A stretch of DNA of 64,000 nucleotides from Candidatus Micrarchaeia archaeon (lineage in GTDB: Archaea > Micrarchaeota > Micrarchaeia > Anstonellales > VGKX01). Under the pieces are notes generated by a model, which was not told where the DNA came from, did no database searches, and worked only from the letters and a program-made list of their open reading frames with translations. The position numbers and the translations under genes were made by a program. Where the stretch lies: positions 63,050-127,049 of the forward strand of contig JBAZLG010000002.1 of NCBI GenBank assembly GCA_041650395.1, given 5' to 3'. This document shows positions 37,109 to 64,000 of this stretch, one piece after another (the stretch's first letter is position 1; the number at the start of each line of letters is the position of its first letter).

Positions 37109-37112
37109 GGCC

Positions 37113-38956: not shown

Positions 38957-39199
38957 GAAGGGAACAGGATAAAGGCAAGGGAAAGCAAAAGCCTGGCCTG
39001 CGCAAGGCAGGCGCAAAGCGCGGGAAGGGGGGAAGAAAGGCAAAAACATAGCCTGCGCCACGCAGGATGCCGCCTGGCATGAAAGCAGGGTTGGATAGAA
39101 AAAACACATCGGCCGCCATGAATCGCAGCATCAGCGCATGGACTGGGCCGCATATTTGAGAGTTAGAAAAATTATATCATGCCAACATGGATGGAATAA

Positions 39200-39241
39200 A
39201 GTGGAAAAAAGAATAAGAAAAAAGAAGAAGGAAGGATGCCC
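39200..39241 (-). terminator. Oligo-T tracts downstream of the pilin gene
   Basis: The minus strand carries T6-T7 runs (plus-strand A-runs at 39205-39210 and 39217-39223) directly after the stop at 39242. Confidence 0.45.
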
Positions 39242-39700
39242 TTAAGCAACCTTGCCTGTCAGTGTGCCGTCTGTCACATAGGCGAAATTGGACGTCAGGT
39301 CCGTGTAGCCAATCCTCACCTTTGCAGTGTAGCCGGAACCGGTTGTCAAGCCAGTGGAGTTGCCAAGGTCAACCACGAGGTTGTCCGTTGTAGAGCCGCT
39401 TGCAAGTGTAACTGCCGGTGAAAGCGTGCCAGTCGACTGGCCTATTGTGACGTTTAGCGTGTCAAGCCTGATCTGCTGGCCCACCTGGTTTGAAAGCTTC
39501 ATTGTAAGCTGGCCGTTTGAGCCCATCTGCCATCCCGCGACCGCGACGCCTGAAAATCCGCTTGCCTTGTTGCCAACGAAATTGCTGACATCAAATATTC
39601 CAAGCGCGAAAAGCACTGCCGCGATTATCACAACAAGTGCGATTGCCCAGCCGTACGTCATGAGAAAGTCAAGCGCTGCTTGCCCTTTTCTAGAATTCAT
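39242..39700 (-). CDS. Type IV pilin (class III signal peptide), probable major pilin of locus A
   Basis: I prefer the ATG at 39700 (MNSRKGQAALDFLMTYGWAIALVVIIAAVLFALG), with GGTGATC (SD) 3 nt upstream and CTTTATTAAG (TATA-like) about 35 nt upstream. The ORF-track extension to 40027 is implausible. Confidence 0.85.
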   Translation of the reverse strand: MNSRKGQAALDFLMTYGWAIALVVIIAAVLFALGIFDVSNFVGNKASGFSGVAVAGWQMGSNGQLTMKLSNQVGQQIRLDTLNVTIGQSTGTLSPAVTLASGSTTDNLVVDLGNSTGLTTGSGYTAKVRIGYTDLTSNFAYVTDGTLTGKVA

Positions 39701-39896
39701 CTGATCACCTTGAATTTTGCTTTCAATTTTCCCCTTAATAAAGCTTTTGCCCCGTAGAGCGTGCCGGGGCGCGCCAGCCGCGGGCGCGCCATGCGGCAGG
39801 GCAAGACACGCATTTACCCCTGCTGACACAACTTGCCCGCCCAACGGCGCCGGACTTATGCAAGGTTTAAATAGTGAAGGTCTCAAAGCAAAATGC

Positions 39897-40742
39897 ATGG
39901 TACAAAGCATAGAAAGGGTGCCCACAGGCCTGCCCGAATTCGACAAGATGGTAGAAGGCGGCCTGCCCCGCGAAAGCGTAAACCTGGTCTCGGGCGGATG
40001 CGGCACGGGCAAGAGCACGTTCGCCATGCAGTTCCTCTACTACGGCGCAATGTATTGCGAAGAGCCGGGCGTCTACGTTACCCTCGAGGAAGAGCCTGAA
40101 AAGCTTGTCAGGAACATGGCTCTTTTCGGCTGGGACATTGAAAAGCTCATAACGGACAAGAAGCTCACGGTCATAAAGCCCGAAGTGTACAAGTTCGATT
40201 CCATAAAGCAGATAATAAGCGACGCCATAGACAGGGTCGGCGCCAAGAGGCTTGTTGTGGACTCCTACTCCGTGCTTCTCACCTACTTCTCCGACCCGTA
40301 CGAAATCCGAAACGGCCTTGTCCAGCTGGACAGGGAAATCAAGAAAATGGGCTGCACTGCGCTTATCATATCCGACATAAAGGACAAGTCGGAGATATTC
40401 TCCACAACGGGTGTCGAGGAGTTCATAGTCGACGGCGTCATAGTATTGCACATGCTAAAGGACAAGGGCAGGCCATACGAATACAGGCGCGCCATATCCG
40501 TGCGCAAAATGAGGGCCACCAAGCACCCGCTGACATATTACCCGTTCGGCATAACCGAGAAGGGCGTGTCAGTCAAGGGCAAGGGCATGTCTGGCATGGG
40601 TTCCGGCACAGGGACCGGCACTGGCGGCGGCGCCCCGGTGAAGAGGCAGAAGGCGAAGAAGGAGGAGCCAAAGGAGGACATAATAGACCTCGGGGAACTC
40701 AAGGCCAAAGGCAGCCACTCATGGAAATGGAAACATCTTTGA
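39897..40742 (+). CDS. KaiC/RecA-superfamily ATPase (single domain, FlaH/ArlH-like)
   Basis: I prefer the ATG at 39897 (MVQSIERVPTGLPEFDKMVEGGLPRESVNLVSGGCGTGKSTFAMQF). It has a Walker A motif, a Walker B-like LVVDS, and a Gly/Lys-rich tail. Confidence 0.8.
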   Translation: MVQSIERVPTGLPEFDKMVEGGLPRESVNLVSGGCGTGKSTFAMQFLYYGAMYCEEPGVYVTLEEEPEKLVRNMALFGWDIEKLITDKKLTVIKPEVYKFDSIKQIISDAIDRVGAKRLVVDSYSVLLTYFSDPYEIRNGLVQLDREIKKMGCTALIISDIKDKSEIFSTTGVEEFIVDGVIVLHMLKDKGRPYEYRRAISVRKMRATKHPLTYYPFGITEKGVSVKGKGMSGMGSGTGTGTGGGAPVKRQKAKKEEPKEDIIDLGELKAKGSHSWKWKHL

Positions 40743-40749
40743 AGGTTGA

Positions 40750-43155
40750 ATGCCGCAGGGGTGTTGGAACTTGAAGGCGCAGGCATCGCTTGAACAGCTC
40801 GTGGTCATCGGCGCGGCGCTGGCATTCATCGCAATCGCATTCTACATAGCAGCAAGCATGTCGGCGGAGAGCATCAAGCTCGCGCAGGCGCAGGATTCGG
40901 TCGAGCGCCTCGCCTCCGCGGCGGATTACGTTTATTCCATAGGGCCCAACACGAAGGAATACGTGACAGTTTTCCTCCCTGCCGGGATAATCTCGACCAA
41001 CACAACGGGGAAGAGGGTCTTGATCAGCCTTTCGACCACCGCGGGCAGCACGGACGTTTACGAGAACACCAGGGCAGACCTGACAGGCACGCTTGAGCCA
41101 AAGCCAGGCAGGCAGAAAGTGCTTGTCGAATACCTGCCGACAGGGAAGGTAAGGCTTGGCGAGGCGGGGCTGACATGTTACCCGAGCTACATAGTTAAGC
41201 AGCTCAATGCAGGCGACACCGCGCAGGACGCCCTCGCATTCTCAAACAACGCGGAATTCAACGTGACCGGGATAAGCTTCAATTACACGGGCTCGGCAAA
41301 GGATTTCACCACCCTCGGCTTAGTGCCAGGCTCGCTTCTGGCAGGCGAATCCGCCAATTCCACGCTCTCATACGACATACCGGCCCAGACGCAAAGCGGC
41401 GTGTACGGCGGGGTCATATCGCTCGATTCCGCGAACGGCGGCTCGTGCACGATACAGGTGTCCCTGAAAGTCAATGGCGTGCCCACGTGCGCCGGCCTTT
41501 GCGCAAACGGCGGCTATGCCACAGGCACGTGCAGGGCGTCCCCGTCCCAATGCGTTGCAAATGGCGAGGACTATTCAAGCCCCGGCGACATCGGATGCGC
41601 TGGCGGCTCGCCAAGCTGCTGCTGCGGGCCGACCCAGGACTTTTTCGGGCCGATTGTGACAAGCATATACCACACTCCGGAAAACGCCAGCACCGCGGAC
41701 AATGTCAGCATATATGCCACTTGCAACGACTCGGAGACCGGCGGGCTGTACATCAGCTCTTCCATGCTGCAGGTAGACGGCGGCGCGTGGATAAGCATGA
41801 ACGCGACGGACGGGACGTTCTCGGACTCGGTGATCGAAAGCTCCAGCGCGTTTGTCGGGATGCTTGCGGCCGGGCAGCACATCGCCATAGTCAAGTGCGC
41901 CGACACTGCGAACAACACCGGGCCACTCGGATATTACTATTTCAACGTGTCCCTCGCGGACGTATACGGGCCGATAATAACGAAACTCAACCATACAGAA
42001 AGCGCGCCCACGACCCTTGTCAACCTGACCGAGGACGCGACGGCAACGGACTATTTCACTGGAAACAACGACATAACCGCTTGCTACATGAAGCTTAGAA
42101 GCCCAGGGGGGGTAGAGACTGCTTGGCTTCCAATCCCCGCGTCGGACGGCGCCTATGACTCGCCAACGGAGGACTTCTCGCACGATTTCGGGCAGCTCTC
42201 CTCCGGCATACATACCATAAGCGCCTACTGCACGGACTCCAAGGGGAACAACGGCGGCCAGTTCAACGACACCTTCGGCGTCGTGACCGTGGACATGATG
42301 CTGATAATAGACAGGTCGGGCTCAATGGCATGGCCCATAACAAACTACACGGACGGCAGCCTGGATTCGACAAAGAACACCGACCTGACCCTCGTCAAGA
42401 GCCTCGTAGTCGGGACCAAAAACGGCGACCTTGCCAACGTGTCCATAGAAACCAGGACAGACACCTCCGGCTGCAGCGCGCTCTACGAGGCGCGCATTGG
42501 CTCGAACGTGATAGCAAGCGGGAACAGGACGTCGACTTCCTATGGCTACAACTATTTCTATAATATCAACATTTCCGCGTACAGCCCGCCATACACTGTG
42601 GATTTCTACCTTGCAAAGTATCCCAATGGCGGCTGCACGGCATACATGCGCGGCGTCGGTGTGACGCAGATGCCCGACAAGATGCAAAGCGCCCAGGACG
42701 CGGCGGATTATTTCGTTGACATTGTGAGCAACACGTCAAAGGTCGGGCTGGTGTCCTACTCGTCAAGCGGGACAACTGACATGCAGCTTGCGGACATGAG
42801 TTCCATCGCGAACAAGAATTCCCTGAAAAGCGCGATAAACGCGCTTTACGCCAGCGGCGGCACGTGCATAGAATGCGGGCTTGACAACGCGGTCACGGAA
42901 CTGATATCTTCAAGGGGGAGAAGCGACTCCGTAAGGGTGGCAATACTTCTCACGGACGGCGTGAGCAATTACGGCAATTCTGTCGACGGCGCGGTCTACG
43001 CCAGGAACAACAACGTTACAGTATATACCATAGGGCTTGGAAACGACGTGGACGACACGGAACTCACAAACATAGCGCTTCTGACAAACGGCAAGTATTA
43101 CAAGGCCCCCGACGCGGCGACGCTTTTGCAGATATACAGCAACATAGGGCAGTAG
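40750..43155 (+). CDS. Pilin-signal protein with a Cys-rich region and a C-terminal von Willebrand factor A domain (putative pilus adhesin)
   Basis: The N-terminus NLKAQASLEQLVVIGAALAFIAIAFYIAAS is class III signal-like. The vWA MIDAS motif is MLIIDRSGSM, with LLTDGVSNYG and VYTIGLGNDVD. A Cys cluster reads CAGLCANGG...GSPSCCCG. Confidence 0.8.
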   Translation: MPQGCWNLKAQASLEQLVVIGAALAFIAIAFYIAASMSAESIKLAQAQDSVERLASAADYVYSIGPNTKEYVTVFLPAGIISTNTTGKRVLISLSTTAGSTDVYENTRADLTGTLEPKPGRQKVLVEYLPTGKVRLGEAGLTCYPSYIVKQLNAGDTAQDALAFSNNAEFNVTGISFNYTGSAKDFTTLGLVPGSLLAGESANSTLSYDIPAQTQSGVYGGVISLDSANGGSCTIQVSLKVNGVPTCAGLCANGGYATGTCRASPSQCVANGEDYSSPGDIGCAGGSPSCCCGPTQDFFGPIVTSIYHTPENASTADNVSIYATCNDSETGGLYISSSMLQVDGGAWISMNATDGTFSDSVIESSSAFVGMLAAGQHIAIVKCADTANNTGPLGYYYFNVSLADVYGPIITKLNHTESAPTTLVNLTEDATATDYFTGNNDITACYMKLRSPGGVETAWLPIPASDGAYDSPTEDFSHDFGQLSSGIHTISAYCTDSKGNNGGQFNDTFGVVTVDMMLIIDRSGSMAWPITNYTDGSLDSTKNTDLTLVKSLVVGTKNGDLANVSIETRTDTSGCSALYEARIGSNVIASGNRTSTSYGYNYFYNINISAYSPPYTVDFYLAKYPNGGCTAYMRGVGVTQMPDKMQSAQDAADYFVDIVSNTSKVGLVSYSSSGTTDMQLADMSSIANKNSLKSAINALYASGGTCIECGLDNAVTELISSRGRSDSVRVAILLTDGVSNYGNSVDGAVYARNNNVTVYTIGLGNDVDDTELTNIALLTNGKYYKAPDAATLLQIYSNIGQ

Positions 43156-53017: not shown

Positions 53018-53749
53018 TTAAGGCAGGATGGTGTACTTGCTAAGGTATACCTGCGTCGAAAGGACTATCAGGAAAGGCATGATGACGACGGAGTTTATGA
53101 ACATCGCGGCATATGTCGAATACGGCTGGGGCAGGATTGCGTAGAACACAAGCTCGTTTAGTGCAAGCATTGCAAAGCCGAGAACGAGCCACATGAGAAA
53201 GAGCGGGAACTTGCTGATTGAATAGCTCACAGACTTCTGTATGGCCCTCCAGGGCCTGTAATCGTCAATGACAAGCGCGGACGGCGTGTAGAAGAAGGGC
53301 AGCGCCGCCACAAGCGTCAGTATGGGGTAGAGCAGGGAGGAATACTGCATGCCAAAGAGCATGAGCTGGATTATGAAAAGGATAATCTGCAATGTCAGGA
53401 AAAGCCAGAACACGTTTATCGTGTACTTGCCTATGCCCGCTATCACCTCGCGCTTTATCAGCACCGAGGTGCGCATGGATTTTATCACCAGGTTGATATT
53501 GACCATGGCGAAGGAGATGAGGAAAAGGGAAACCAGGAAGGAGAACGCCATTATGCCCACGTCCCAGCTCGTGACGTCGGGTATGCTGCCCGTGCGCAGG
53601 AAAACCCCGCCAAGGGCGAGATAGACGGGCGTCTGGATGAAGAGGGGTATCAGGATGGCAAAGAGCAGGGGGATTGAGAAAAAGGAAATCAGGGTGATGT
53701 TCTTGAAGTAGGCGGAAACGGAGTATTTCAGGACCTTGAACATATGCAT
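53018..53749 (-). CDS. Hypothetical polytopic membrane protein
   Basis: A 243-aa ORF with about 6 hydrophobic helices. I saw no peptidase A24 (GxGDxK) motif. Confidence 0.6.
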   Translation of the reverse strand: MHMFKVLKYSVSAYFKNITLISFFSIPLLFAILIPLFIQTPVYLALGGVFLRTGSIPDVTSWDVGIMAFSFLVSLFLISFAMVNINLVIKSMRTSVLIKREVIAGIGKYTINVFWLFLTLQIILFIIQLMLFGMQYSSLLYPILTLVAALPFFYTPSALVIDDYRPWRAIQKSVSYSISKFPLFLMWLVLGFAMLALNELVFYAILPQPYSTYAAMFINSVVIMPFLIVLSTQVYLSKYTILP

Positions 53750-53767: not shown

Positions 53768-54670
53768 CTAGTTCTTCTTTCTTTTCCCTGTTTTTGAATC
53801 TTTCTTTGCGGGGTTCTGGCTTTTTGGCGCCTTCCCGGCCTTTTTCGCGGGGGGCGGTTTCGGCGCGTGCCTTGCCGCGAACGATTCGAGTGTCTTGGCC
53901 TGCGGGGGCGCTGGCTGTTTGGGGGCTTGAGAGCCGGGCTTAGCGTTCGCCAGCTGGTCTATGGATGGGAAAACCTCGAAGCCGCCGGAGGATATCCTGT
54001 AATTGTGCATTTCCCTGTCCGCCCCTATGACGCCGAGCACGAAGAGCTTGTCGCCCTCGAACTCGATTACCCCGTCCATCAGGTGGCGAACCATCGTGAC
54101 GGTCTTCTCGTCGTGCATCCCCTCCTCGAGGACGAAAAAGACAGTGGCGCCGGAATTCCTGAACTTGCCGATTATGAACTGGAGGAACTTGAACACCGAG
54201 GACGCGGGCAGGGTCTCGAAAAGGGTCGAGAGCGAATGCACGCCCACCCGGAAGCTAAGCGGGCATTCCTTCTCGCACAACTCGTCCACAGCCCGGGAGA
54301 TTTTAAGCGAAATCGAGCTTAGCGCAGTGGAGGAGTCGGCGTAGGAGACTATCTCGGTGTCCCGAAGCGACAGGTCGAACTGCTTTGAGTAGCAGTCTAT
54401 GACGCGGACAAGCCCTTTTTTCTCGTATTCGCCGACGCTCTCGCCAGTCTTTTCCATCATGCGCTTCCAGTCGTCGTAGCCGAAGTCGGTGAGCAGGTAG
54501 AGGGCTGGTATGCCCTGTTTCATGCCGTTGTAGACAAGCTCCATCAGAAGCGGCCTCTTGCCGCACATGGGGGAGCCGTAAATGAGCAGGTTGGAGGGCG
54601 ACTCAAGCCCGCCGCCAAGGACGATGTCCAGCCCTTTAACTCCGGTCTTGATTTTTGTGCCCTGCGCCAT
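53768..54670 (-). CDS. KaiC/RecA-superfamily ATPase-like protein with a deviant P-loop and a Lys/Pro-rich tail
   Basis: The sequence reads KTGVKGLDIVLGGGLESPSNLLIYGSPMCGKRPLLMELVYNG. The Walker A motif ends GKR rather than GK[ST]. The C-terminus is APKQPAPPQAK...KKDSKTGKRKKN. Confidence 0.7.
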   Translation of the reverse strand: MAQGTKIKTGVKGLDIVLGGGLESPSNLLIYGSPMCGKRPLLMELVYNGMKQGIPALYLLTDFGYDDWKRMMEKTGESVGEYEKKGLVRVIDCYSKQFDLSLRDTEIVSYADSSTALSSISLKISRAVDELCEKECPLSFRVGVHSLSTLFETLPASSVFKFLQFIIGKFRNSGATVFFVLEEGMHDEKTVTMVRHLMDGVIEFEGDKLFVLGVIGADREMHNYRISSGGFEVFPSIDQLANAKPGSQAPKQPAPPQAKTLESFAARHAPKPPPAKKAGKAPKSQNPAKKDSKTGKRKKN

Positions 54671-54767
54671 GAAAAACCCATTCGATTATTTTTTGATGCC
54701 CGCCACGGCTGGCATGGAACCTGTCCTTGCACGCCTTTATCGGGATATGAAGACTTGCACGCTCATA

Positions 54768-54775
54768 TTTATAAA
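54768..54775 (+). promoter_or_regulatory. TATA box for the KaiC-like gene 54799-55548 (leaderless-type spacing)
   Basis: TTTATAAA lies 24-31 nt upstream of the ATG at 54799, in the AT-rich divergent intergenic region between two KaiC-like genes. Confidence 0.45.
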
Positions 54776-54798
54776 GATTTTTAAAAATATAGTCATAG

Positions 54799-55548
54799 AT
54801 GGCAACGAAAAACAAAAAAGCCCAAAAAGAGCCCGCGGCAGTAGACCCCAACCGGGTGCCGACAGGCATACCCGGCCTTGACGACCTTATAACAGGCGGG
54901 ATTGAAAAGGAGTCCAATGTCCTTGTCATGGGCGGGCCGGGCTCCGGCAAGACCACTTTTCTTGTCCAGTTCCTAGTCCAGGGCGCGCTCAAGTACAACG
55001 AGCCGGGGCTTTTTTTGACGTTTGAGGAGCAGAAGGAGACGCTTGTCAAGCACATGGGTAATTTCGGCTGGGACCTCAACGCGCTCGAAGACGAGGGCAT
55101 GTTTACCGTCATAACCTACAAGCCGCACGAAGTGAAAAAGCTCCTTGACGAGGGCGGCGGCATGATTTGGGACTCCATACATTCCATCAAGGCCAAGAGG
55201 CTCGCCGTGGACTCGCTTTCTACCTACGCCATGCTCTTCGACACGAATTACCAGATGCGCGAGAGCCAGCTATTGCTTTTCGACCTGTTGAGAAAATGGA
55301 ACATCACCACGCTTCTTTCAGGGGAGGCGCAGAACGCCTCATTGATCAGGAAATTCACGGGCATGGAATACCTCACTGACGGCGTGATACTCCTGCACCA
55401 CCCGAGGCAGGGAAACGCAAGGGTCAGGGCGCTTGAGGTGCTCAAGCTAAGAGGCATTGGCCATTCCCAAAAAATCTGCCCGTTCGAGTTCATAGAGGGC
55501 AGGGGCATAGAGGTCTACCCGGACGAGGACGTTTTCTCGGAAATGTGA
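54799..55548 (+). CDS. KaiC/RecA-superfamily ATPase (single domain, FlaH/ArlH-like)
   Basis: The sequence RVPTGIPGLDDLITGGIEKESNVLVMGGPGSGKTTFLVQFLVQGA has a canonical Walker A motif and a Walker B-like LAVDS. It is homologous to 39897-40742. Confidence 0.8.
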   Translation: MATKNKKAQKEPAAVDPNRVPTGIPGLDDLITGGIEKESNVLVMGGPGSGKTTFLVQFLVQGALKYNEPGLFLTFEEQKETLVKHMGNFGWDLNALEDEGMFTVITYKPHEVKKLLDEGGGMIWDSIHSIKAKRLAVDSLSTYAMLFDTNYQMRESQLLLFDLLRKWNITTLLSGEAQNASLIRKFTGMEYLTDGVILLHHPRQGNARVRALEVLKLRGIGHSQKICPFEFIEGRGIEVYPDEDVFSEM

Positions 55549-55564
55549 TTCGGCATTCCCCACC

Positions 55565-56086
55565 CTATTTTTTCCTTCTGTTTTTCCTGGATTTTTTCTT
55601 CTTGACAGGGTACAAAGCATCAACGAGCCAGAGCAGAGCGGAAAAGCCAATAACCATAACCTGAAAGGCTATTATGATATAAAAGAGGAATACGACCAGA
55701 TGAAAACTCGGGGCATTCCAGTCACTAAAATGCTCGCCATATTTCTGCGTAGTAGTAATAGAGAAAACAACGAACGCGAGAAGGAAAAAAAGCATTAGCA
55801 GAAATTGAACTTTGACCGCAGTGTATTCTATTTGCCGGATGTAGCCTGCAGACTGGAAAAGAAATCTAGACGAGAGTAACATGAAGAGAAGGAGAAAAAA
55901 ACTCACATTGAACAAGTTAATCCCTAAATCAGAGCCAGAACCGGCCATCTGAAAGACAAGAGTGAAAATCAAGAGAAGTATGCTTATCAATACGAGTTGG
56001 GCATCCTGCCTGTCCTCTTTAGAGATGCCCCGCTTCAACTGGCCCGAAACAACCGTATTTGCTCCTTTTTTAAGATTCTCAAACAC
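55565..56086 (-). CDS. Hypothetical membrane protein
   Basis: A 173-aa ORF with about 4 hydrophobic helices and a poly-Lys/Arg C-terminus. No family recognised. Confidence 0.55.
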   Translation of the reverse strand: MFENLKKGANTVVSGQLKRGISKEDRQDAQLVLISILLLIFTLVFQMAGSGSDLGINLFNVSFFLLLFMLLSSRFLFQSAGYIRQIEYTAVKVQFLLMLFFLLAFVVFSITTTQKYGEHFSDWNAPSFHLVVFLFYIIIAFQVMVIGFSALLWLVDALYPVKKKKSRKNRRKK

Positions 56087-56118
56087 GTTATAACCCCAGA
56101 TACGGCTCCTTCATCGCG

Positions 56119-56589
56119 TCACTGGCATAAACCTACAAGGTCCTTTGAATAGCCGTCAAAGCCCTGTACCTTGTCAAGGCCGTCAGACTCAATGTAACTG
56201 AAGGTTATCTCGCGCGAGCTTATGGAATAGGCAAGGCCGGGCGCGCAGGCGAGGTAACCGCCGTGCATCACTATCTGGGTTTTCTCGCCCGCGAAAAGGT
56301 CAATCGGCAGGGCGGGGCTTGTGGAATTGAAGCCCGCCACGCGCAGGCCGGTCAGTGTGAGCCTTTCAGGCTCCGAGTTCTGTATGACAAGGGATAGGGT
56401 GCCGTTGCCCGCGTTCTCGTGCGAGAGCACGTGGAAAGGCCTTGCGATGCCTCGCCAGTAGACGCTCGACTGCGTGATGCGCGCGCCCTGCTGGAGCGGA
56501 GGGAACAGGCTTAGCAGGACAAAGAAGACTAGGACTATCACAAAGCCGATCAATATCGCAAGCAGGAACTTGTCGAGTTGGAAAGCCAT
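56119..56589 (-). CDS. Pilin paralog lacking the canonical prepilin cleavage motif
   Basis: I prefer the ATG at 56589 (MAFQLDKFLLAILIGFVIVLVFFVLLSLFPP). The body is homologous to the two upstream pilins (SSVYWRGIARPFHVLSH...LSLVIQNSEPERLTLTGLRV...KDLVGLCQ), but it has no K/R-G-Q site. Confidence 0.65.
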   Translation of the reverse strand: MAFQLDKFLLAILIGFVIVLVFFVLLSLFPPLQQGARITQSSVYWRGIARPFHVLSHENAGNGTLSLVIQNSEPERLTLTGLRVAGFNSTSPALPIDLFAGEKTQIVMHGGYLACAPGLAYSISSREITFSYIESDGLDKVQGFDGYSKDLVGLCQ

Positions 56590-56721
56590 TTGCCAGGTCA
56601 CCTGTGAAGCATAAAGGCGGCAGGGTTTTAATTTGCATTGGGTCGCAGGAGTGCGCCATGGCGATTCGCGCATGGGAAAAAGGAATGGAAAAAGGCGCGC
56701 GCAAAGCAGAGGCTAAGGGAT

Positions 56722-56757
56722 GGTGAAAATAAAAAGAAAAAAAGTGGGGAAATGGGC
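56722..56757 (-). terminator. Oligo-T tracts downstream of pilin gene 56758-57231
   Basis: The minus strand reads CCCACTTTTTTTCTTTTTATTTTCACC immediately after the stop. Confidence 0.45.
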
Positions 56758-57231
56758 TTAGCCGCACGTCCCTATGAGGTCCTTCACTGCAGCGTCGCCG
56801 CCCTGTTTCTGCCCTGCGATTGAGGCGGAGTCGTAGGTGAAGGAAATCGCATTGCCCGCAATGTCGTACCTTGTGGACCCGTTGCCGCAAACGCCCGTGT
56901 TGTTTATGACAAAGGCAGCCTTCTTCTCGCCGCCAAGGAACTCAATGCTCGAGTTTGTGGAGCCATTGCCGACCGTCATGCTGGTCAGTGTCAGCTTCTT
57001 GGAGTCCGCGTTCTGCAGCACTACTGTGAGTGCGCCATTGCTTGCCTTGTGCTCAACAATCCTGAACGGGTAGGCAGTTCCCTGCCAGTACGAGTCGGAC
57101 TGCGCTTTCTGGGCGTCGGTTGAAAGGCCCGGGAAGAATCCGAGTAGCGCTATTGCCACGAGTGCGACAATGAGCACGACTGCCAGGATAACCAGGTATT
57201 CAGTCGAGCCTTGGCCTTTTCTTGTGTTCAT
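56758..57231 (-). CDS. Type IV pilin (class III signal peptide)
   Basis: The N-terminus is MNTRKGQGSTEYLVILAVVLIVALVAIALLGFFPGL, with a conserved body (DSYWQGTAYPFRIVEH...LTVVLQNADSKKLTLTSMTV...KDLIGTCG). Confidence 0.85.
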   Translation of the reverse strand: MNTRKGQGSTEYLVILAVVLIVALVAIALLGFFPGLSTDAQKAQSDSYWQGTAYPFRIVEHKASNGALTVVLQNADSKKLTLTSMTVGNGSTNSSIEFLGGEKKAAFVINNTGVCGNGSTRYDIAGNAISFTYDSASIAGQKQGGDAAVKDLIGTCG

Positions 57232-57253
57232 TCAAATCCCTCTAAAATACTGT

Positions 57254-57712
57254 TTATGCGCACTTGCCTATGAGCGTCTTGGTGCCCTGTTCAAGCTTTG
57301 AGAGGCCCGAACCAGTTGTGTAGGAGATGTTCACCTGGTACTCATAAGTGTCGCCTGCCGTGCAGGAAGTGAGCCCGGTAAAGTTGCCTATTGTCTTTTG
57401 CTGGCCGCCCGCGAACGTTATTGTCGTGGAGTTGCCGATTGTGCCGTTGCCAACTGCCATCGCCGTGATTGTGAGGGCCTCTGATTCAGAGTTGAGCATC
57501 ACGAGGCTAAGCGTTGTGCCGCTCTGGACGTGGTCCTTTATCTGGAATGGCCTTGCCTCTCCCCTCCAGTAGGAGTCAGACTGGGTGATTTTCGCGTCGC
57601 CTGCGAGCCCCGGGAAGAACCCAAGAAGCGCGATTGACACGAGCGCTATGATAAGCACTACTGCCAACAGAACTAGATATTCTGTGGCGCCTTGACCTTT
57701 TCTAAATTCCAT
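57254..57712 (-). CDS. Type IV pilin (class III signal peptide)
   Basis: I prefer the ATG at 57712 (MEFRKGQGATEYLVLLAVVLIIALVSIALLGFFPGL), with GGAGG about 10 nt upstream. It is a paralog of 56758-57231. Confidence 0.85.
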   Translation of the reverse strand: MEFRKGQGATEYLVLLAVVLIIALVSIALLGFFPGLAGDAKITQSDSYWRGEARPFQIKDHVQSGTTLSLVMLNSESEALTITAMAVGNGTIGNSTTITFAGGQQKTIGNFTGLTSCTAGDTYEYQVNISYTTGSGLSKLEQGTKTLIGKCA

Positions 57713-57762
57713 GCGAGTATCGCCTCCGAAATGTAATGTCGTTCTCTTATTTCTGGATGCTG

Positions 57763-57770
57763 TATATAAA
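57763..57770 (-). promoter_or_regulatory. TATA box upstream of the pilin gene pair
   Basis: The minus strand reads AAGATTTATATACAG. The box lies about 50-58 nt upstream of the ATG at 57712, leaving a short leader that carries GGAGG. Confidence 0.45.
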
Positions 57771-57885
57771 TCTTTGCACAATCACCGAGGTAAAAACATG
57801 CAAAACTCCGTGAAAAACCACTTTAAAAAACAGGGAAAATAATACTGTTTAGATGGCATATCGCAGGCGCCGCGCCCAATCCGGC

Positions 57886-58926
57886 CTAAAATATGGAGCC
57901 GATGAATGATGAGACAAGTGCCCTTATGACAAGGTAGATAATCGACGTGGCTATGGCGAGGGGCAGGACATATTTTACGCCGTAGAGGAACTTGCCTTCG
58001 GATATCACACCTATGAGGAGGCTGACAAGCGTGCACGTGCCGAATATGATTACAAAGGCCATCTGGAAAACGAAGTTCGGCGAGAGCGTCAGCTTGGGGG
58101 CGGTCAGGGCCGTAGTGGCGCTCGTGATGGAGCCAGCGTCGAGGCTCGACTGGATTTTCGCGAAGGTGGTCAGGAACTGGCCCGATATGGCAAGCAGCAG
58201 GGGCAGGCCCACGATTACCACGAAGAACAGGAATATTGTGTAGGAGCGCGTGTTGAGGGCAAGCTCCTTTTTGAGCTGCTCCATCTCGCGCAACTCCTCC
58301 GCGGCCGATTCCAGAAGCTCCGCGAGCTTGCCGCCCGAGCGCAGCCCCTGCTCGAAGAACGTGATTGTCCTGCCGAGAAGCGGCGAGTCTATGCGCGCGG
58401 TGAGCTGGAGCAGGGAAGTCGAAAGCGACTCTGTTCCCAGGGACTTCGCAGCGACTATCTTGATTTCCTTCTCAAGGGGCCCGAATTCCGGGCGCGCGGC
58501 GAGCCTGAAGGCCGCGAACGGCGCCATGCCGGAGCGCAGGTTGGCGGCCACCATCATCAAAAAGTCCGGGAGCACCTCCTCGACCCTGCTCGTCCTGCCA
58601 TGGACAAGGTAGTAAAGGTGCATGTATATCAGCACAATGGAGATTACAGCGAACAGGCCGGCAAAAAGCAGGCCCACGCCGGTTATGAACACGATTTCGG
58701 AGCCTGAAAGGCCGACGAGGTCGAACGAATATACCCCCAGGTGCGGCAGTATGCTGAACGGCACGAGGAAGCCGACAACGGAGAAAAGCGCCACCACGAG
58801 GACCATCGAGCCTATCCAGACCTCCGGCTCGGCCTCTATGCCTGCATGCGCCAGCCTGCGCTCTATTATGCCGGCGCTCTGGTTGTCAAGGACCTTCGAG
58901 AACCTCTTGTAAAGTACGTATTTCAA
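57886..58926 (-). CDS. T2SS-F-domain membrane protein (TadC/FlaJ-like platform subunit 2)
   Basis: The 346-aa ORF contains VEEVLPDFLMMVAANLRSGMAP...GGKLAELLESAA and is homologous to 37988-38956. Confidence 0.8.
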   Translation of the reverse strand: MKYVLYKRFSKVLDNQSAGIIERRLAHAGIEAEPEVWIGSMVLVVALFSVVGFLVPFSILPHLGVYSFDLVGLSGSEIVFITGVGLLFAGLFAVISIVLIYMHLYYLVHGRTSRVEEVLPDFLMMVAANLRSGMAPFAAFRLAARPEFGPLEKEIKIVAAKSLGTESLSTSLLQLTARIDSPLLGRTITFFEQGLRSGGKLAELLESAAEELREMEQLKKELALNTRSYTIFLFFVVIVGLPLLLAISGQFLTTFAKIQSSLDAGSITSATTALTAPKLTLSPNFVFQMAFVIIFGTCTLVSLLIGVISEGKFLYGVKYVLPLAIATSIIYLVIRALVSSFIGSIF

Positions 58927-58939
58927 AGATATTACCTTC

Positions 58940-59842
58940 CTATATTATGTTGGGCCTCTGCATTTTTATGAACCCTATCAAAAGCACCTGCATGAAAAAC
59001 GATGCCAGGATTACGCCAGCGAACACGAGCTCGTTTATGCCGAGTATGCCGAACACGGAAAAAATGACAAGCACAGTGATGCCCACAGTGGGGACCACGG
59101 CCGCAAGAAGCAGGTAGATGAGCACGAGGAAGTTCAGCTCCGAGTTGTATTTCTTTATCAGCCCGAACTGGTAATTGACAAGCATCGTCACCATGGACTT
59201 GAGCGCGGAGGAAAGGTTGGCCCCTGCCCGGATGGTGGTCACAAGCTGCCAGACAGTCTTTTTCAGGTATTGCGAGCGCGTGCGCACAGCCATGTCCTCC
59301 AGAGAATCCACGGTCGACCTGCCAAGGGATATGTCCTTGTATGCCTTCTCGAACTCCGCGGATACGTAGCCATAGCCCGCGCCGCCCACATTGCCCATAG
59401 CGCCGTAAAGAGATATGCCGGACTTGACCTGCACGAGTATGTCCCTTACCGCGTAGACAAGGTCGCGGTCAATCTGGGATTCCACCTTCTGCGCCACTAT
59501 GCGCGGGTAGGAGGCGAGAAGCACGAACACAAGGATGAAGACGAAGAAAAAGCCCAAAAACGGGGCCAAAAGCGCCTGCGTCTCGGTTATTGTAGTCGAG
59601 AACGACACTAGAACGCGCATGAGCACGCCGAAAAAGGCGGCATACGCAACGGACGAGATGAATGCGGAAATCAGGAACTGGTCAGAGGAATAGGTCTTTA
59701 TGCCCGCGTCGCGCAGGTCGTATTCCACGAACGGCAGTATGCCCTTGAGCCTGTAGCCTATGGGCTTGAGGAACGAGAGCCTCTTTTTCACGTATTCCGG
59801 GTTTACGAGAATGAACGGGATTGTTTCCTGAGCCATTGGCAT
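58940..59842 (-). CDS. T2SS-F-domain membrane protein (TadB/FlaJ-like platform subunit 1)
   Basis: The 300-aa ORF contains LVYAVRDILVQVKSGISLYGAM...VDSLEDMAVRTRSQYLKKTVWQL and is homologous to 37113-37988. Confidence 0.8.
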   Translation of the reverse strand: MPMAQETIPFILVNPEYVKKRLSFLKPIGYRLKGILPFVEYDLRDAGIKTYSSDQFLISAFISSVAYAAFFGVLMRVLVSFSTTITETQALLAPFLGFFFVFILVFVLLASYPRIVAQKVESQIDRDLVYAVRDILVQVKSGISLYGAMGNVGGAGYGYVSAEFEKAYKDISLGRSTVDSLEDMAVRTRSQYLKKTVWQLVTTIRAGANLSSALKSMVTMLVNYQFGLIKKYNSELNFLVLIYLLLAAVVPTVGITVLVIFSVFGILGINELVFAGVILASFFMQVLLIGFIKMQRPNII

Positions 59843-59879
59843 CCTACCTTCTTGCCGGCATCGCCCCGGCAGGCGGCCC

Positions 59880-61631
59880 CTATTCCTTGGGGATTACGGA
59901 ATCCGGCTTTTTCTTCTTCTGCGCCGCCTCGATTATCTCGTCGGGGTTGAGGTAATATGCGTTGAACACGGCCCCCACCTGGTTGATGTCGGACAGGTTG
60001 TTGGCCTTCATCCAGTCGAGCACTCCGGCGCGCGACTTTATCTCCTCGTCTATCTCGCGCTCCGTCATGCCCGTGTGCAGGTTGAGCTCGTTGTAGAACT
60101 TGGTCGGCGGGGCTATCTTGTCAAACGTGTCCGAGCGGGGCCTCCACCTGTATATGATGTTGGGGGTCAGCTCGTTGGACTGCGAGCCGGAAACGACCTC
60201 GGAAATCTCAAGTGTGCGCCTTAGGTTCTTCCTCCTGTCCCTGTACTGGACTATGAGCAGGTGCAGCGAGGAAAGTTCAGACGGCGGGATAGCCATTGGC
60301 GGCTGGGTGAGCCTGCGCAGCACCTGCGCGGACGTGTCGGCGTGCATCGTCGAATACGTGGAATGGCCCGTATGCATGGCCTCGAAAAGCACTTCCGCCT
60401 CCGGGGCGCGCCTCATCTCGCCCAGGATGATGCGGTCAGGCCTCATCCTCAACGACGTCACGAGAAGGTCGAGCATAGTGACCTCGCCAAGGCCCTCGGC
60501 ATTGGGGTTCCTGGTGATTAGGGGCACCCAGTTCCACTGGTGCTCCGGAAGCATGATTTCCCTCGTGTCCTCGATTGTGACAATCCTCTGGTTTGGCGGG
60601 AAGAACGCGCACAGGGCGTTGAGGGCGCTCGTCTTGCCCGATGCCGTGCCGCCTGCGACTATGACGTTCAGTTCATAATGGAATGCAATCCAGAGCGTGG
60701 CGGCCATCTCGGACGTCATCGTGTTGGACTTGTCCGAAAGCAGGCTGATGATTGTCCACGGGTTCCTCGCAAACCGCCTGATGGTTATGGTGTTGCCGTG
60801 CGATGAAATAGGCGAGAGCGTGGCGCATACCCTGTCGCCCGACTCGAGCCGGGCGTCCATGATAGGGTTGAGTATGGCAATCTGCCTGCCGACCTTCCTG
60901 CCTATCTGGGACGCGAAGTTGAGGATTTCCTCCTCGTTTGGCAGGTAGAGGTTAGTGCGCAGCCACCCGAACTTCCTGTGATAGACCGAGATGGGGGTGG
61001 AAGAATTGTTGATGGCTATTTCCTCGAGCCAGTCGTCGTGCGTCAGCACGTCTATCTCGCCAAGCCCGAACATCCTGTGCAGCAGCAGGCCAGCGAACAG
61101 GTTGGTGCTCTTCTCGTCGAACTGGAAATTCCCAAGGTACTGCTGCGTGCTCTTGAAAAACTGGTTTTTCATCTGCGTAGTCTTCTCGATATCGGAATAC
61201 TCTACGGAAATCGCGGGCATCTTGTTTGAAAGCTCGTCCCTAATCTGGTCCAAGAACGCGCGGGTGGGGAAGCTTAGGCCCTCGAACTCCACCATGTAAT
61301 ACGACGAGTCGTTGAGCCGCGCCACGCGTATGTTGGCGGGCACGTAGTCAGCCTCGATGGAGTACGAGTCCAGCATGGCCGACTTTGAAATCTGGGGCTC
61401 CGCGGGCGGCTCCTTGTAGCTGACCTGCCTGGGGGTGACATAGGGCTTCTGGAGTATGTTGAGGGGGTAATGGACCTCCACAAGCCGCGCCTTCTCCATC
61501 AGGGAGGCGAGATATTCGGCGGATGTAGAAGAGATGTTGAGCGTGTGGGCGAGGAAAGGTATGCTCGGGCGCTTCCTTGCGCGCACAATGTCCATGAATG
61601 AGTCGACGGTCGTATGCAACATGTTTCTCAC
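59880..61631 (-). CDS. Type IV pilus/secretion ATPase (FlaI/PilB/TadA family) with an N-terminal winged-helix-like extension
   Basis: The 583-aa ORF has Walker A (GGTASGKTS), TIEDTREI, RMRPDRIILGEMR and EAMHTGHSTYSTMHA. It is about 85 aa longer at the N-terminus than 35618-37108. Confidence 0.9.
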   Translation of the reverse strand: MRNMLHTTVDSFMDIVRARKRPSIPFLAHTLNISSTSAEYLASLMEKARLVEVHYPLNILQKPYVTPRQVSYKEPPAEPQISKSAMLDSYSIEADYVPANIRVARLNDSSYYMVEFEGLSFPTRAFLDQIRDELSNKMPAISVEYSDIEKTTQMKNQFFKSTQQYLGNFQFDEKSTNLFAGLLLHRMFGLGEIDVLTHDDWLEEIAINNSSTPISVYHRKFGWLRTNLYLPNEEEILNFASQIGRKVGRQIAILNPIMDARLESGDRVCATLSPISSHGNTITIRRFARNPWTIISLLSDKSNTMTSEMAATLWIAFHYELNVIVAGGTASGKTSALNALCAFFPPNQRIVTIEDTREIMLPEHQWNWVPLITRNPNAEGLGEVTMLDLLVTSLRMRPDRIILGEMRRAPEAEVLFEAMHTGHSTYSTMHADTSAQVLRRLTQPPMAIPPSELSSLHLLIVQYRDRRKNLRRTLEISEVVSGSQSNELTPNIIYRWRPRSDTFDKIAPPTKFYNELNLHTGMTEREIDEEIKSRAGVLDWMKANNLSDINQVGAVFNAYYLNPDEIIEAAQKKKKPDSVIPKE

Positions 61632-61673
61632 TTTGTTTGTATTACTTATTAATATTTGCGAAGGATGCGGCCC

Positions 61674-62678
61674 CTAGCCGTAGCCCCCCGCAGTCGAATT
61701 CCTGGACGCGCCGAAAAGCGTGAAGTTGAGGGCCAGCGCAGGGACAGGGGCGAATGGGCTTTTCCTGTATGCCGAATAGAGCCCGCCAGCGTCGGATATG
61801 CCCGTGCGCACCAGGTAAGAGCAGCCCGGCGCGTTGGTGAAAGTCACGCGCACCCCGTTCGAGCCGCCCCAGGCGCTCGAGAACTCCACGTCCACCGTCC
61901 CGCCGCTGGAGAGCAAAAACGACGCGTACGGGGCAGACGCGTACGAGGATACAGCCTGCTGGTAGGCAGTGGAGCCTCCCGCGGAGATTGTGGCATTGAA
62001 AGCCACGCAGGACAGGCCGCAGGAGCTGTTGGAGAGGTAATGGGTTTGGGAAGAGAGGCCCTGCGGGCAGTCCACCCGCACAGACTGGGAATACGCCTGG
62101 ATTGCAGGCGGGAAAACGAAATAATGCCTTTCAACGCCGGGCAGGGACTGGTTGGAGTAATAGCGTATCCCGTTTCCAAGGTAGTTTGTCGGGACGCTCA
62201 TGTTGTCCATGCAGAAATACGCCATGCCCGGGCCGAATTGCGCAGCGTTGTAGCCGAGGGACGACTCCGCGTGCGTGAGGTTTGAAAACCTGCCCGTGAA
62301 ATAGGCGGAATAGTTGGCATACGCCGCAGCCTGCGAGAGGTTGGCGGATGCGGCCTGCGAGAATCCGCCGGAGCAGTTGAGCGTGAAATTGCCCGATGCC
62401 GCGTGTGAGAAGAATTCCGTGGAATTGCCGTGGTTGTACGCCCACGTGGTGCCGTTGGGCTGGATTGACAGGTAGCTGGGGTTGAGAGACATCGCGCGCA
62501 GGTTCGACGCCATGTCGTCATAGGCGAAGGAGACTGTTTCCGCGGGGTATATGGAGCGCATTGAAAGCGAGCGGGCGTTGGAGTCCAGTGAAAACTGGTA
62601 TGCCAGCATGACAAGCGACGACACGAGAAGTATCGTGGAAAGCGTGAATATGAATCCCCTGCTTATTCCATGCCCCAT
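61674..62678 (-). CDS. Pilin-like protein, putative minor pilin
   Basis: The N-terminus is MGHGISRGFIFTLSTILLVSSLVMLAYQF. It is the syntenic counterpart of 34083-34916. Confidence 0.65.
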   Translation of the reverse strand: MGHGISRGFIFTLSTILLVSSLVMLAYQFSLDSNARSLSMRSIYPAETVSFAYDDMASNLRAMSLNPSYLSIQPNGTTWAYNHGNSTEFFSHAASGNFTLNCSGGFSQAASANLSQAAAYANYSAYFTGRFSNLTHAESSLGYNAAQFGPGMAYFCMDNMSVPTNYLGNGIRYYSNQSLPGVERHYFVFPPAIQAYSQSVRVDCPQGLSSQTHYLSNSSCGLSCVAFNATISAGGSTAYQQAVSSYASAPYASFLLSSGGTVDVEFSSAWGGSNGVRVTFTNAPGCSYLVRTGISDAGGLYSAYRKSPFAPVPALALNFTLFGASRNSTAGGYG

Positions 62679-62682
62679 GCTC

Positions 62683-63297
62683 TCACTCGTGCACCGAATC
62701 GCGGTACCACATTGTCAGCGCCGCTATGCCGTAGGAATAGGACGCGGAGGACGTAGTGGTCCTGTTTATGTCAGTATGGGTTATGTTGTAATAATAGGTC
62801 GTGTTGTAGGTGACGTTCGTCAGCACCAGGACACGCCTCGAGACCGCGTAGTCCCCGCCGGTCAGGGCGCAGCCGGACTTGTAGACGGGGCTGAACAATG
62901 AAGAGGAGTTGTCAAGCTCGAATTCGAATTTGGCGCAATACCTGGAGGGTATCAGGCCGAGCGCTGATTCGACACGGGGCTGGGACACGCGGCTTGACAC
63001 GGTGGTGATGTTGGTCACCCGGGTGTAATTGCCAGGGAGCGTGTTGTATGTTATGATGGTTGAAACCTGCGAATATAGAAGCGTGCCAAGCTTGTCGTGC
63101 ACGGAAAGGAAGTCCATGGAGTATTTCGACAGCCTGATGCCTGAAAACGTGTCGGCCTGGGCAAGCTGGATATAATAGTATATGATATAGCCTGCGAGGA
63201 AGAGAACTGACAGGGCGAATACGGCCTCGAATGTGAGGATAAAGCCTGGCCTCCTGCCCGCGCCCGCGGGATGTGAGCATTTTTGCGCCTTTGCCAT
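62683..63297 (-). CDS. Pilin-like protein, putative minor pilin
   Basis: The N-terminus is AGRRPGFILTFEAVFALSVLFLAGYIIYYYI. It is the syntenic counterpart of 33667-34095. Confidence 0.65.
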   Translation of the reverse strand: MAKAQKCSHPAGAGRRPGFILTFEAVFALSVLFLAGYIIYYYIQLAQADTFSGIRLSKYSMDFLSVHDKLGTLLYSQVSTIITYNTLPGNYTRVTNITTVSSRVSQPRVESALGLIPSRYCAKFEFELDNSSSLFSPVYKSGCALTGGDYAVSRRVLVLTNVTYNTTYYYNITHTDINRTTTSSASYSYGIAALTMWYRDSVHE

Positions 63298-63307
63298 GAT
63301 TACGCCT

Positions 63308-63859
63308 TCAGTATTTCTCCTGCCACGCCTCCACTATCAGGGTGGATGGGGTGTTGTTGTATGCCACCGGCCTTTCAACCACGTAGGCAATCACAGTGCT
63401 GTTGTTGAAGTGCAGCGGGACGCCTTCGCCAAAGGAATATGCGGTGCCATTGCCCTGCTCAATGCCTATGTGGAACCCCATGCCGCCCACGCCGAGTATT
63501 TCCTTGACGCGCTCGTACTGCGAATTGTTCGGCGGCGTTGGGCTATTGTACGCCTGCAGCGCGTCAAGCTTCTGCTGGCTTATGACGTTCCTCTCGCTTG
63601 CAAGCCCTATGGATACGGTGGAATTCAATGGGTAATATTCCCAGTCGGGGGGATTGCCCTGCGACTGGACAAGGCTGTCGGACGCGAAGAGGGCCGCCTG
63701 CTCCACGGAATTGACCTGGCGCGCCGAGCCTATCTGCTCGTTTGCCAGGTTCCAGATGTAAAACGACACGAGCACTATAGCCATGAAGACCGAAAGTGCG
63801 ATGACCAGGTCGTTGGAGAGTATCTGCCCCCTGTGGCATCCGCGTTTGTCATTGGACAT
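63308..63859 (-). CDS. Pilin-like protein, putative minor pilin
   Basis: I prefer the ATG at 63859 (MSNDKRGCHRGQILSNDLVIALSVFMAIVLVSF), which overlaps the upstream gene's stop (ATGTCCAATGA). It is homologous to 33201-33677. Confidence 0.65.
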   Translation of the reverse strand: MSNDKRGCHRGQILSNDLVIALSVFMAIVLVSFYIWNLANEQIGSARQVNSVEQAALFASDSLVQSQGNPPDWEYYPLNSTVSIGLASERNVISQQKLDALQAYNSPTPPNNSQYERVKEILGVGGMGFHIGIEQGNGTAYSFGEGVPLHFNNSTVIAYVVERPVAYNNTPSTLIVEAWQEKY

Positions 63860-64000
63860 TTTCAAGCCTCACAGTGCCGTTTAGCATGTATATCCTGACA
63901 TAGGAATTGAGCGTGAAATTGGCCGGTACGGCTTGCGTCATGTTGGTCACGGCAGAAAAGGAATAGCGCGTGTAATTTGTGGTCACAACCACCGAATGGT
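63849..64000 (-). CDS. Pilin-like protein, C-terminal fragment (gene starts beyond window end)
   Basis: The minus-strand frame reads ...SAVTNMTQAVPANFTLNSYVRIYMLNGTVRLENVQ*. This resembles the C-terminus of 32780-33196 (...FPATNFTRIENRGGTVYFEA*). Not in the ORF track because it is truncated. Confidence 0.5.
   Translation of the reverse strand, partial: HSVVVTTNYTRYSFSAVTNMTQAVPANFTLNSYVRIYMLNGTVRLENVQ

Follow-up and report, generated by a model that had tools for sequence, protein, structure and literature searches.

Introduction

Why would an archaeon keep two clusters of pilus genes about 11 kb apart, and is one of them a copy of the other? The question is raised by a 64,000-nucleotide stretch of DNA from a Candidatus Micrarchaeia archaeon (the window, whose numbering is used unless another locus is named), part of a 1,104,519-bp ENA contig (ERZ27247363 k141_2656877) from a landfill metagenome. 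Locus B (53768-64000) is the subject of this work, and locus A (32780..43155, plus strand) is its comparator. An initial annotation of the window had described locus B as a gene-for-gene mirror of locus A, produced by duplication of the whole locus. Because DPANN archaea need physical contact with a host, and pili-like connections have been seen, their pilus genes are of interest: pili-like links of ARMAN/Micrarchaeota to hosts have been reported (PMC5864196), and in the Micrarchaeota literature that we searched type IV pili are given merely as present, or as pili-like host contacts.

Our reading, which we consider likely, is that Micrarchaeota, a DPANN lineage, have kept side by side two type IV pilus (T4P; type IV filament, TFF) clusters that are paralogous and diverged long ago, and that locus B is one of them and builds filaments in the manner proposed below. 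The window holds two complete homologous machineries, as the initial annotation had held, each with its own ATPase, platform pair, minor pilins and pilins, and with differing adhesin and regulatory parts. Homology and synteny point to two different adhesive filaments, most likely one from each locus and each under its own control.

The filament machinery of locus B

Judged by its gene content, the interval 53768-64000 is predicted to be a complete archaeal T4P cluster. The open reading frames (ORFs) listed earlier for it were all found at the coordinates given, and their placement on the minus strand holds for every gene but one, KaiC1 (54799-55548), which is on the plus strand and convergent with the gene for a small membrane protein.

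The motor is a B-type pilus assembly ATPase of the PilB/VirB11 family (580 aa; 59880..61622, minus strand), whose T2SSE domain (PF00437, E 2.8e-33; 115 bits, cutoff 24.9) identifies it as a VirB11/PilB secretion ATPase. The ORF had been given as 59880-61631; it stands, with its start corrected from a GTG (583 aa) to the ATG at 61622, which gives the 580-aa form present in the public collection. Its nearest PDB entry is Archaeoglobus fulgidus GspE2 (2oap, E 5e-75), followed by FlaI and CpaF (E 3e-43 for CpaF). Both motifs quoted earlier as an example of diverged counterparts are there: ATPase A has GNTITIRKFARKPWTI at residue 205, and ATPase B has GNTITIRRFARNPWTI at residue 276. Next to the motor gene, and on the same strand, lie two adjacent genes for TadB/TadC-like platform subunits with one T2SSF domain each: P1 (58940..59842; PF00482, E 2.8e-11) and P2 (57886..58926; PF00482, E 2e-15). 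The pair, whose domains score 43.9 and 57.3 bits (cutoff 25.2), makes up a polytopic T2SSF platform.

Three pilin genes follow on the minus strand. The candidate major pilin, pil1 (152 aa; 57254..57712), scores 22.6 bits on PF04021, just under the cutoff of 23.7, and its paralogue pil2 (157 aa; 56758..57231), at 24.7 bits, is over it. Both open with RKG↓QG(A/S)TEYL (RKG↓QGATEYLVLL in pil1, the arrow marking the cleavage site), and so have the class III signal of PF04021, Q-x-S-x-E-x-x-x-L. The two are 51% identical by BLASTP, and the diverged third paralogue, pil3 (156 aa; 56119..56589, within ORF 56119-56673), is 35-37% identical to either. It is without the [KR]G↓Q motif, its N-terminus reading MAFQLDKFLL from the ATG at 56589, and may stay membrane-anchored or be a decaying copy. 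The same start, giving 156 aa, is the one called for pil3 on the source contig.

For pil1 we found 1401 homologues, the named ones from Micrarchaeota. An AlphaFold2 (AF2) model of this protein, built with 43 homologues (predicted local distance difference test score, pLDDT, 85), has a long N-terminal helix and a beta-sandwich, and its best PDB matches are the archaeal T4P subunits of Pyrobaculum calidifontis (8fk7, E 2e-5) and of the Sulfolobus Aap filament (8q30), together with 6w8u and 6nav, and also FlaF. The TM-scores to PDB pilins are low (0.3-0.4) because the orientation of the helix differs. Thus a class III signal and a pilin fold, which together mark a filament subunit, are found here in the PF04021 match of pil2, in the KG↓QGxTEYL motif and in the AF2 fold of pil1.

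An archaeal element resembling a B recognition element and TATA box (BRE/TATA), AAAGATTTATATA, can be read from the sequence at 57763..57775 (minus strand), ~50 nt upstream of the pil1 ATG, and T-runs at 57821-57833 (after P2) and 56725-56744 (after pil2) flank the two genes. This arrangement suggests that pil1 and pil2 may form a separately and strongly transcribed major-pilin unit.

Four minor-pilin genes lie on the other side of the ATPase gene, also on the minus strand. Of mp1 the window holds the 3' end only (63849..64000, the last 49 codons and the stop), and 292 nt of the gene are outside. We read 10 kb past the window end on the source contig (L163 and L164; window position 64000 is L164 position 9860), where the full gene (L164 9568-10011) encodes 147 aa, with the class III signal RPG↓QVTVEFVMIV and a weak score on a TadE-like model (21.6 bits, cutoff 22.9). 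The product of mp2 (183 aa; 63308..63859) has HRG↓QILS followed by a hydrophobic helix, and mp3 (204 aa; 62683..63297) and mp4 (334 aa; 61674..62678), the latter with 13 N-x-S/T sequons, were paired by profile with their counterparts in locus A. The minor pilins of locus B have in common a [KR]G followed by a hydrophobic helix, and N-glycosylation sequons are abundant in them.

Could these genes serve something other than a pilus? Locus B might be an archaellum, or a bindosome-like structure or short pseudopilus that displays or secretes LamG, DUF2341 and glycine-rich surface proteins, and it is true that large secreted lectin-domain proteins are encoded directly upstream, that the KaiC-like ATPase is reminiscent of the archaellum protein ArlH and that pil3 has no cleavable signal. 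However, the ATPases reach just 263 (ATPase B) and 270 bits on the NCBI FlaI equivalog (cutoff 550) and 145 bits on the bindosome BasE model (cutoff 1000), KaiC1 scores 35 bits where the ArlH model asks for 215, and Pfam scans of the window turned up neither ArlF/G/C/D/E nor archaellin families. The LamG N-termini are moreover of Sec type. The signals and the fold of pil1 and pil2 are those of a canonical pilin. We rejected the archaellum and bindosome identities on the NCBIfam cutoffs, the ArlH model giving 35 and 55 bits against 215, and we regard a non-pilus function for locus B as quite improbable.

Loci A and B as probable ancient paralogues

How closely does locus B resemble locus A? On the plus strand locus A runs from mp1-4 (32780-34916) through a gene combining CBS and winged-helix domains (34924-35595), the ATPase (35618-37108), P1 (37113-37988) and P2 (37988-38956), then an inverted pilin gene on the minus strand (39242-39700), a KaiC gene (39897-40742) and a pilin-like vWA adhesin (40750-43155, plus strand). 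The claim of gene-for-gene mirroring stands for mp1-4, the ATPase, P1 and P2. For the rest it is overstated: locus A has one inverted pilin and one KaiC, where locus B has three co-directional pilins and two KaiC-type genes.

The counterparts had been called similar but clearly diverged by eye, and the core parts are indeed homologous yet distant. By BLASTP the A and B proteins are 45% identical for the ATPase, 29% for P1, 34% for P2, 38% for KaiC, 26% for mp2 (E 1e-10) and ~30% for the pilins (E 1e-4), and neither mp3 nor mp4 could be paired in this way. Profiles seeded from locus A and built over 82 related loci were more sensitive, pairing mp2 at E 1e-45, mp3 at E 3e-17 (reciprocally 6e-29) and mp4 at E 9e-8. 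The 49-residue window fragment of mp1 had no meaningful score on the mp1 profile, and mp1 was paired only through the full gene on the contig. Among the locus A minor pilins, mp2 also matches DUF7287, a haloarchaeal minor-pilin family, weakly. At the DNA level the two loci align in two places only, 775 nt of the ATPase core (66% identity) and 154 nt within KaiC.

We then compared each component with its relatives in other genomes. ATPase searches listed ~120 cluster representatives for each of A and B (117 clusters in the B family), and a joint alignment of 235 sequences was used for neighbour-joining (NJ) trees with Kimura distances and 60 bootstrap replicates. All 60 replicates contained the bipartition between the A and B ATPases. 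The window ATPases show 53-98% identity to members of their own family and 41-49% to the other family, and 150 of the 233 database ATPases are closer to each of them than its in-window paralogue is. Both families comprise >100 sequence clusters, their named members coming mostly from Micrarchaeota, Micrarchaeia and Anstonellaceae, and proteins named Ca. Gugararchaeum adminiculabundum occur in both (P0116 and P0173), so that this name carries both families.

The other components tell the same story. Identity to a same-type locus elsewhere, as against the in-window paralogue, is 64% versus 29% for P1 of locus A and 57% versus 29% for P1 of locus B, 57% versus 34% for P2 of locus B, 52% versus 38% for KaiC of locus A and 64% versus 38% for KaiC1 of locus B. 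The pil1 protein is 63% identical to the pilin of a B-type locus elsewhere, and mp2 and the pilins, like the ATPase, P1, P2 and KaiC, are closer to same-type loci elsewhere. Counted by component type, seven of the eight pairs (11 of 12 proteins) have their much closer relatives in same-type loci of other genomes, the exception being the adhesin. Since the same-type relatives are so much closer than the in-window paralogues, the paralogy must be ancient rather than the product of a lineage-specific duplication, and on these sequence comparisons we take A and B to represent an ancient paralogy shared across Micrarchaeota.

This outcome goes against the duplication within this lineage that the initial annotation had proposed. 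It had named trees and alignments of the paired components as the check, and by these the two loci are not each other's closest relatives. A recent duplication of the whole locus in this genome, with fast divergence thereafter, would account for the common core order (mp1-4, ATPase, P1, P2), the homologous accessory genes and the ~11 kb separating the loci, but it would have to be reconciled with >100 closer relatives of each ATPase in other organisms and the A/B split in 60/60 bootstraps, with the identities of P1, P2, KaiC and pilins (52-64% to same-type loci elsewhere against 29-38% in the window), and with a DNA similarity of just 66% in two conserved cores. The 50-80% identity spread of the database orthologues also excludes that they are mis-assembled copies of the two window genes. 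A recent duplication is therefore scarcely credible.

If the loci did not arise by a recent duplication, could one of them have come by horizontal transfer from another DPANN or euryarchaeal group, with no duplication involved? In an NJ tree rooted with 47 bacterial CpaF sequences, the A super-group also includes Iainarchaeum- and Woesearchaeota-labelled sequences (L004, L008, L023), and named A-type matches include Aenigmarchaeota and Marsarchaeota; adhesin modules move between locus types, and modularity and horizontal transfer of T4P loci are documented (PMC4858521). On the other hand, both families are broad and deep in Micrarchaeota, and the composition of the loci is like that of the rest of the window, with a GC fraction of 0.55-0.56 in locus A, locus B and the whole window. 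The same rooted tree, although weakly, places the A and B super-groups as sisters within one DPANN-dominated clade. We thus judge independent acquisition unlikely and favour two old paralogues.

The B super-group of the rooted tree includes a third ATPase, which we call type C (L003, L005, L006). Type C ATPases, sisters of B, are found within 10 kb of an A- or B-type locus (L006 3111-4610 and 12044-13513; L003 47-1015 and 9368-11680; L005), so that some Micrarchaeota genomes would have at least three such systems.

Gene order in other genomes

A metagenome scan with B-specific motifs returned 80 B-type loci, in which KaiC gene(s) usually come first, followed by the gene for a large pilin-like adhesin, the series mp1-mp2-mp3-mp4, and then the ATPase, P1, P2 and pilins. 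Where at least 5 kb of upstream sequence was present (n=29), mp1-3 were found in 21 loci, mp4 in 19, the adhesin in 18 and KaiC in 14; where at least 5 kb was present downstream (also n=29), P1 and P2 were found in every locus and pilins in seven. The A-type loci L007, L165 and L166 keep mp1-4, the CBS-winged-helix gene, the ATPase, P1 and P2, and in L166 these are accompanied by an inverted pilin, then KaiC, then a DUF7504 gene.

The accessory genes of locus B include two of KaiC type. KaiC1 (54799..55548, plus strand) is a single-domain KaiC-like ATPase (PF06745, E 5e-57) with a canonical Walker A motif; its closest PDB entries are KaiC and PH0186, not FlaH, and it is 64% identical to a gene at the same position in L085, likewise on the reverse strand. 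KaiC2/DUF7504 (53768..54670, minus strand) is a diverged KaiC/RecA-like protein (PF24336, E 1.7e-18; PF06745, E 1.4e-17) with an atypical Walker A, GSPMCGKR, and a 70-residue tail rich in Lys, Pro and Ala. A KaiC and DUF7504 pair also lies downstream of the A-type locus L166, so that both systems may have inherited this accessory pair from an ancestor.

Two membrane proteins on the minus strand are without a Pfam match: a small polytopic protein of 173 aa (55565..56086) and one of 243 aa (53018..53749) whose place in the locus is doubtful. We considered both as a prepilin peptidase or as part of the conserved core, and rejected them on the missing Pfam matches and on finding 0 homologues in 82 B-type loci.

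A winged-helix module shared by the two systems

The initial annotation had noted that only locus A has a vWA protein and a CBS sensor. For these Pfam domains within the window this is so. However, the N-terminus of ATPase B is ~85 residues longer than that of ATPase A, and its residues 1-54 (61461..61622, minus strand), as found by hhalign, AF2 and Foldseek, form a winged-helix domain matching the C-terminus of the locus A CBS protein (hhalign probability 99.0%, E 3e-18, over 53 columns of two small alignments). With the CBS protein as a single phmmer query, its residues 163-214 likewise match residues 3-54 of several B-type ATPases. Locus B thus holds a counterpart of half of the locus A CBS gene.

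The fold assignment has structural as well as profile evidence behind it. The AF2 model of the ATPase B N-terminus (pLDDT >90 over residues 1-60) has an H1-S-H2-H3-hairpin topology, and Foldseek matched it to the winged-helix proteins PapI, ArsR/CzrA/SmtB, MarR family and TFE with TM-scores of 0.6-0.7 and root-mean-square deviations of 1.6-2.8 A. The C-terminal segment of the CBS protein gives sub-threshold matches to DUF2250, TrmB and HTH_24. When the 82-aa winged helix was compared by phmmer with 1.8 billion representatives, 10 weak matches came back, mostly fragments, and these were not informative on architecture.

In three loci related to type B the winged helix is a separate protein of 127-133 aa with a C-terminal transmembrane helix, encoded directly upstream of a shorter ATPase (L125 8524-8925, L139 2625-3026 and L158 8534-8917). 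One winged-helix module therefore has three architectures: fused to the ATPase in B-type loci, fused to CBS in A-type loci and transmembrane-anchored in related loci. It is the CBS pair alone, and not the winged helix, that is specific to A-type loci.

Adhesins at and beyond the window edge

The contrast in vWA content is also changed by what lies just past the window end, where adhesin-type genes of locus B are found. Upstream of mp1 on the source contig are four genes, encoding two LamG_3 proteins (1077 and 970 aa) whose N-termini are of Sec type and not class III, a 376-aa pilin-like protein and a DUF2341 protein of 663 aa. The 376-aa protein begins with the class III signal RRG↓QNSVETIVIL and is homologous to the N-terminus of the locus A vWA protein (28%, E 1.4e-5). 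The vWA/CBS contrast between the loci is thus partly an artefact of the window edge and of domain fusion.

Adhesins of B-type loci elsewhere have a class III signal, an N-terminal region like that of the locus A vWA protein and a variable head, which is vWA in L117, L121 and L104, LamG with fn3 in L108 and beta-propeller-like in L160; in the A-type locus L007 the head is Ig-like. Heads of the vWA kind are frequent among the B-type loci of other genomes. The vWA adhesin of locus A (40750-43155) is itself closer to B-type adhesins (39% over 771 aa; L121 4175-6457) than to A-type ones (30% over 525 aa; L166 7090-9069). Such swapping of adhesins between A and B types is like the exchange of pilin sets described for euryarchaea (PMC4858521).

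A C-terminal module of ~316 aa, 66-79% identical between them, is common to four large secreted proteins on the contig (1018-5736, 5784-9182 and 44081-47785, all on the minus strand, and L164 63-2054). Their N-terminal parts differ, with an S8 peptidase plus LamG in one and LamG, Gly_rich_2 and DUF2341 in the others. Two of the four adjoin pilus loci. Neither Pfam nor the PDB gave a match to the module, which lacks a terminal transmembrane helix and may be a common anchoring or docking domain.

Relation to known filament systems

Which of the described systems does locus B resemble? In euryarchaea, T4P loci are described as present in two or more diverged copies that go back to an ancestral duplication; they have two tadC-like genes, exchange pilin sets as modules and occur together with KaiC-family ATPases and vWA proteins (PMC4858521). 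For TFF systems at large, several loci per genome, a platform that is split in System 1 (found in methanogens and some DPANN), ATPases with variable N-terminal domains, and CBS proteins near some subsystems have been described (10.64898/2026.04.22.720090).

The Clade 2/System 2 loci of Haloferax volcanii (PilB3-PilC3 and PilB4; PMC4858521) resemble the present case in that a genome has at least two diverged ATPase/platform loci, attributed there to ancestral duplication, each with its own minor-pilin set, and in the accompanying KaiC ATPases, vWA proteins, large adhesins and exchange of pilin and adhesin sets (PMC4858521). A further likeness is that P0169, a relative of type A, reaches the PilB3_C Pfam family (PF23989) at 27.1 bits against a cutoff of 27; no window ATPase matched this PilB3-like C-terminal domain at E<=0.01. 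Unlike System 2, the platform here is split into two genes in both loci rather than being a single gene, the pilins have the Q-x-S/A-x-E-x-x-x-L signal of PF04021, and the B-type ATPase is extended at its N-terminus by a winged helix, found in sister loci as a separate CBS-fused or membrane-anchored protein. The host, too, is a DPANN archaeon, a group nearly absent from the 2016 census (PMC4858521).

System 1, the Epd pilus of Methanococcus maripaludis, shares with both loci an ATPase with two platform genes, an arrangement also present in 29/29 B-type loci with a downstream flank, as well as the clustering of many pilins and accessory genes and the Q at +1 of the class III signal. It has been reported in some DPANN archaea (10.64898/2026.04.22.720090). 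However, no EppA/EpdA peptidase gene was found in the extended locus B, and pil1 and pil2 have the globular beta-sandwich that the main Epd pilin is said to lack (10.64898/2026.04.22.720090). To the bacterial Tad pilus, the likeness lies in the CpaF homologue (E 3e-43), the TadB/TadC-like split platform and the near-threshold TadE-like match of mp1. Unlike the Tad pilus, locus B is without a secretin, TadZ and a Flp-type short pilin, and has archaeal class III signals; bacterial CpaF sequences were set as the outgroup of the tree. For why two loci might be retained, a functional analogy, and that only, may be drawn with Saccharibacteria episymbionts, which are ultrasmall and host-dependent and have two T4P systems with reportedly different roles in episymbiosis (PMC11623550); these systems are of the bacterial type IVa pilus (T4aP) kind and their locus organisation is not homologous.

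Locus B therefore belongs to a known kind of archaeal T4P, and the general picture of archaeal type IV filaments is unchanged. The additions are a map, component by component, of two pilus systems conserved in Micrarchaeota, evidence for old paralogues rather than a local duplication, variable adhesin heads as likely determinants of specificity, and a winged-helix fusion/fission that ties the CBS protein of locus A to the motor ATPase of locus B. In the literature searched we found no description of the A and B families or of this fusion/fission, which is not proof of novelty. The pil1 and pil2 genes, the adhesins and the CBS-winged-helix protein are concrete targets in the few cultured Micrarchaeota.

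A model for filament assembly and its weak points

How might locus B work? The full unit on the contig would consist of the 376-aa pilin-like adhesin homologue, the two LamG lectins, mp1-4, the winged-helix ATPase, the two platform subunits, pil1-3 and the KaiC-like ATPases. A class III signal peptidase encoded elsewhere would cut the prepilins that have [KR]G↓Q..E signals, and the hexameric ATPase, docked to the split platform, would polymerise pil1 and pil2, both genes being under their own putative TATA-like promoter, into the shaft. The priming or tip complex would be formed by mp1-4 and the 376-aa pilin-like protein, which with the LamG proteins would set binding specificity, while the KaiC-like ATPases and the winged-helix domain would modulate the motor. 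Locus A would follow the same mechanism, but with a vWA tip adhesin and with its winged helix on a separate protein, fused to a CBS pair for adenosyl-ligand sensing. Plausibly, such filaments would serve attachment to hosts or surfaces in an ultrasmall symbiont.

Several points weigh against this account of two old paralogous filament systems. The choice of major pilin and of tip proteins follows from gene order and promoter-like motifs, and is predicted to that extent. No match to the Peptidase_A24/FlaK-type family of prepilin peptidases appeared among the ~50 window ORFs scanned with Pfam, and in public sequencing runs the pilin genes occur in no RNA-seq run and the locus in one DNA run, the landfill metagenome. 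In Haloferax, visible pili come from only one of several such loci (10.64898/2026.04.22.720090), so locus A or B may be silent. As to descent, the internode joining A and B as sisters in the rooted NJ tree is 0.005 long and without a support value; one very old whole-locus duplication would be the simplest reading, not a proven one, when set against ancient separate acquisitions. Finally, the closeness of the locus A vWA adhesin to B-type adhesins implies that modules have been exchanged and that the loci have not evolved strictly as units.

A wider reading in two joint parts can be put forward tentatively, and we hold it possible rather than probable. In its first part, Micrarchaeota would keep two, and some of them three, ancient pilus machines specialised for different hosts or surfaces by exchangeable tip adhesins (vWA, LamG, beta-propeller, Ig). 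In its second, the winged helix would be a dedicated regulatory adaptor of the DPANN pilus motor, which in A-type loci would couple assembly to adenylate or S-adenosylmethionine status.

Other genes between the pilus loci

On the minus strand at 51145-53001 is a gene for a 618-aa protein that matches Glycogen_syn (PF05693, E 1.3e-85). A carbohydrate-storage enzyme of this mainly eukaryotic family would not be expected in a reduced DPANN genome. A 518-aa protein encoded between the two pilus loci on the plus strand (48579-50135) has dense clusters of Cys residues, such as CSDCYFCHNCEACENCILC, and no Pfam match.

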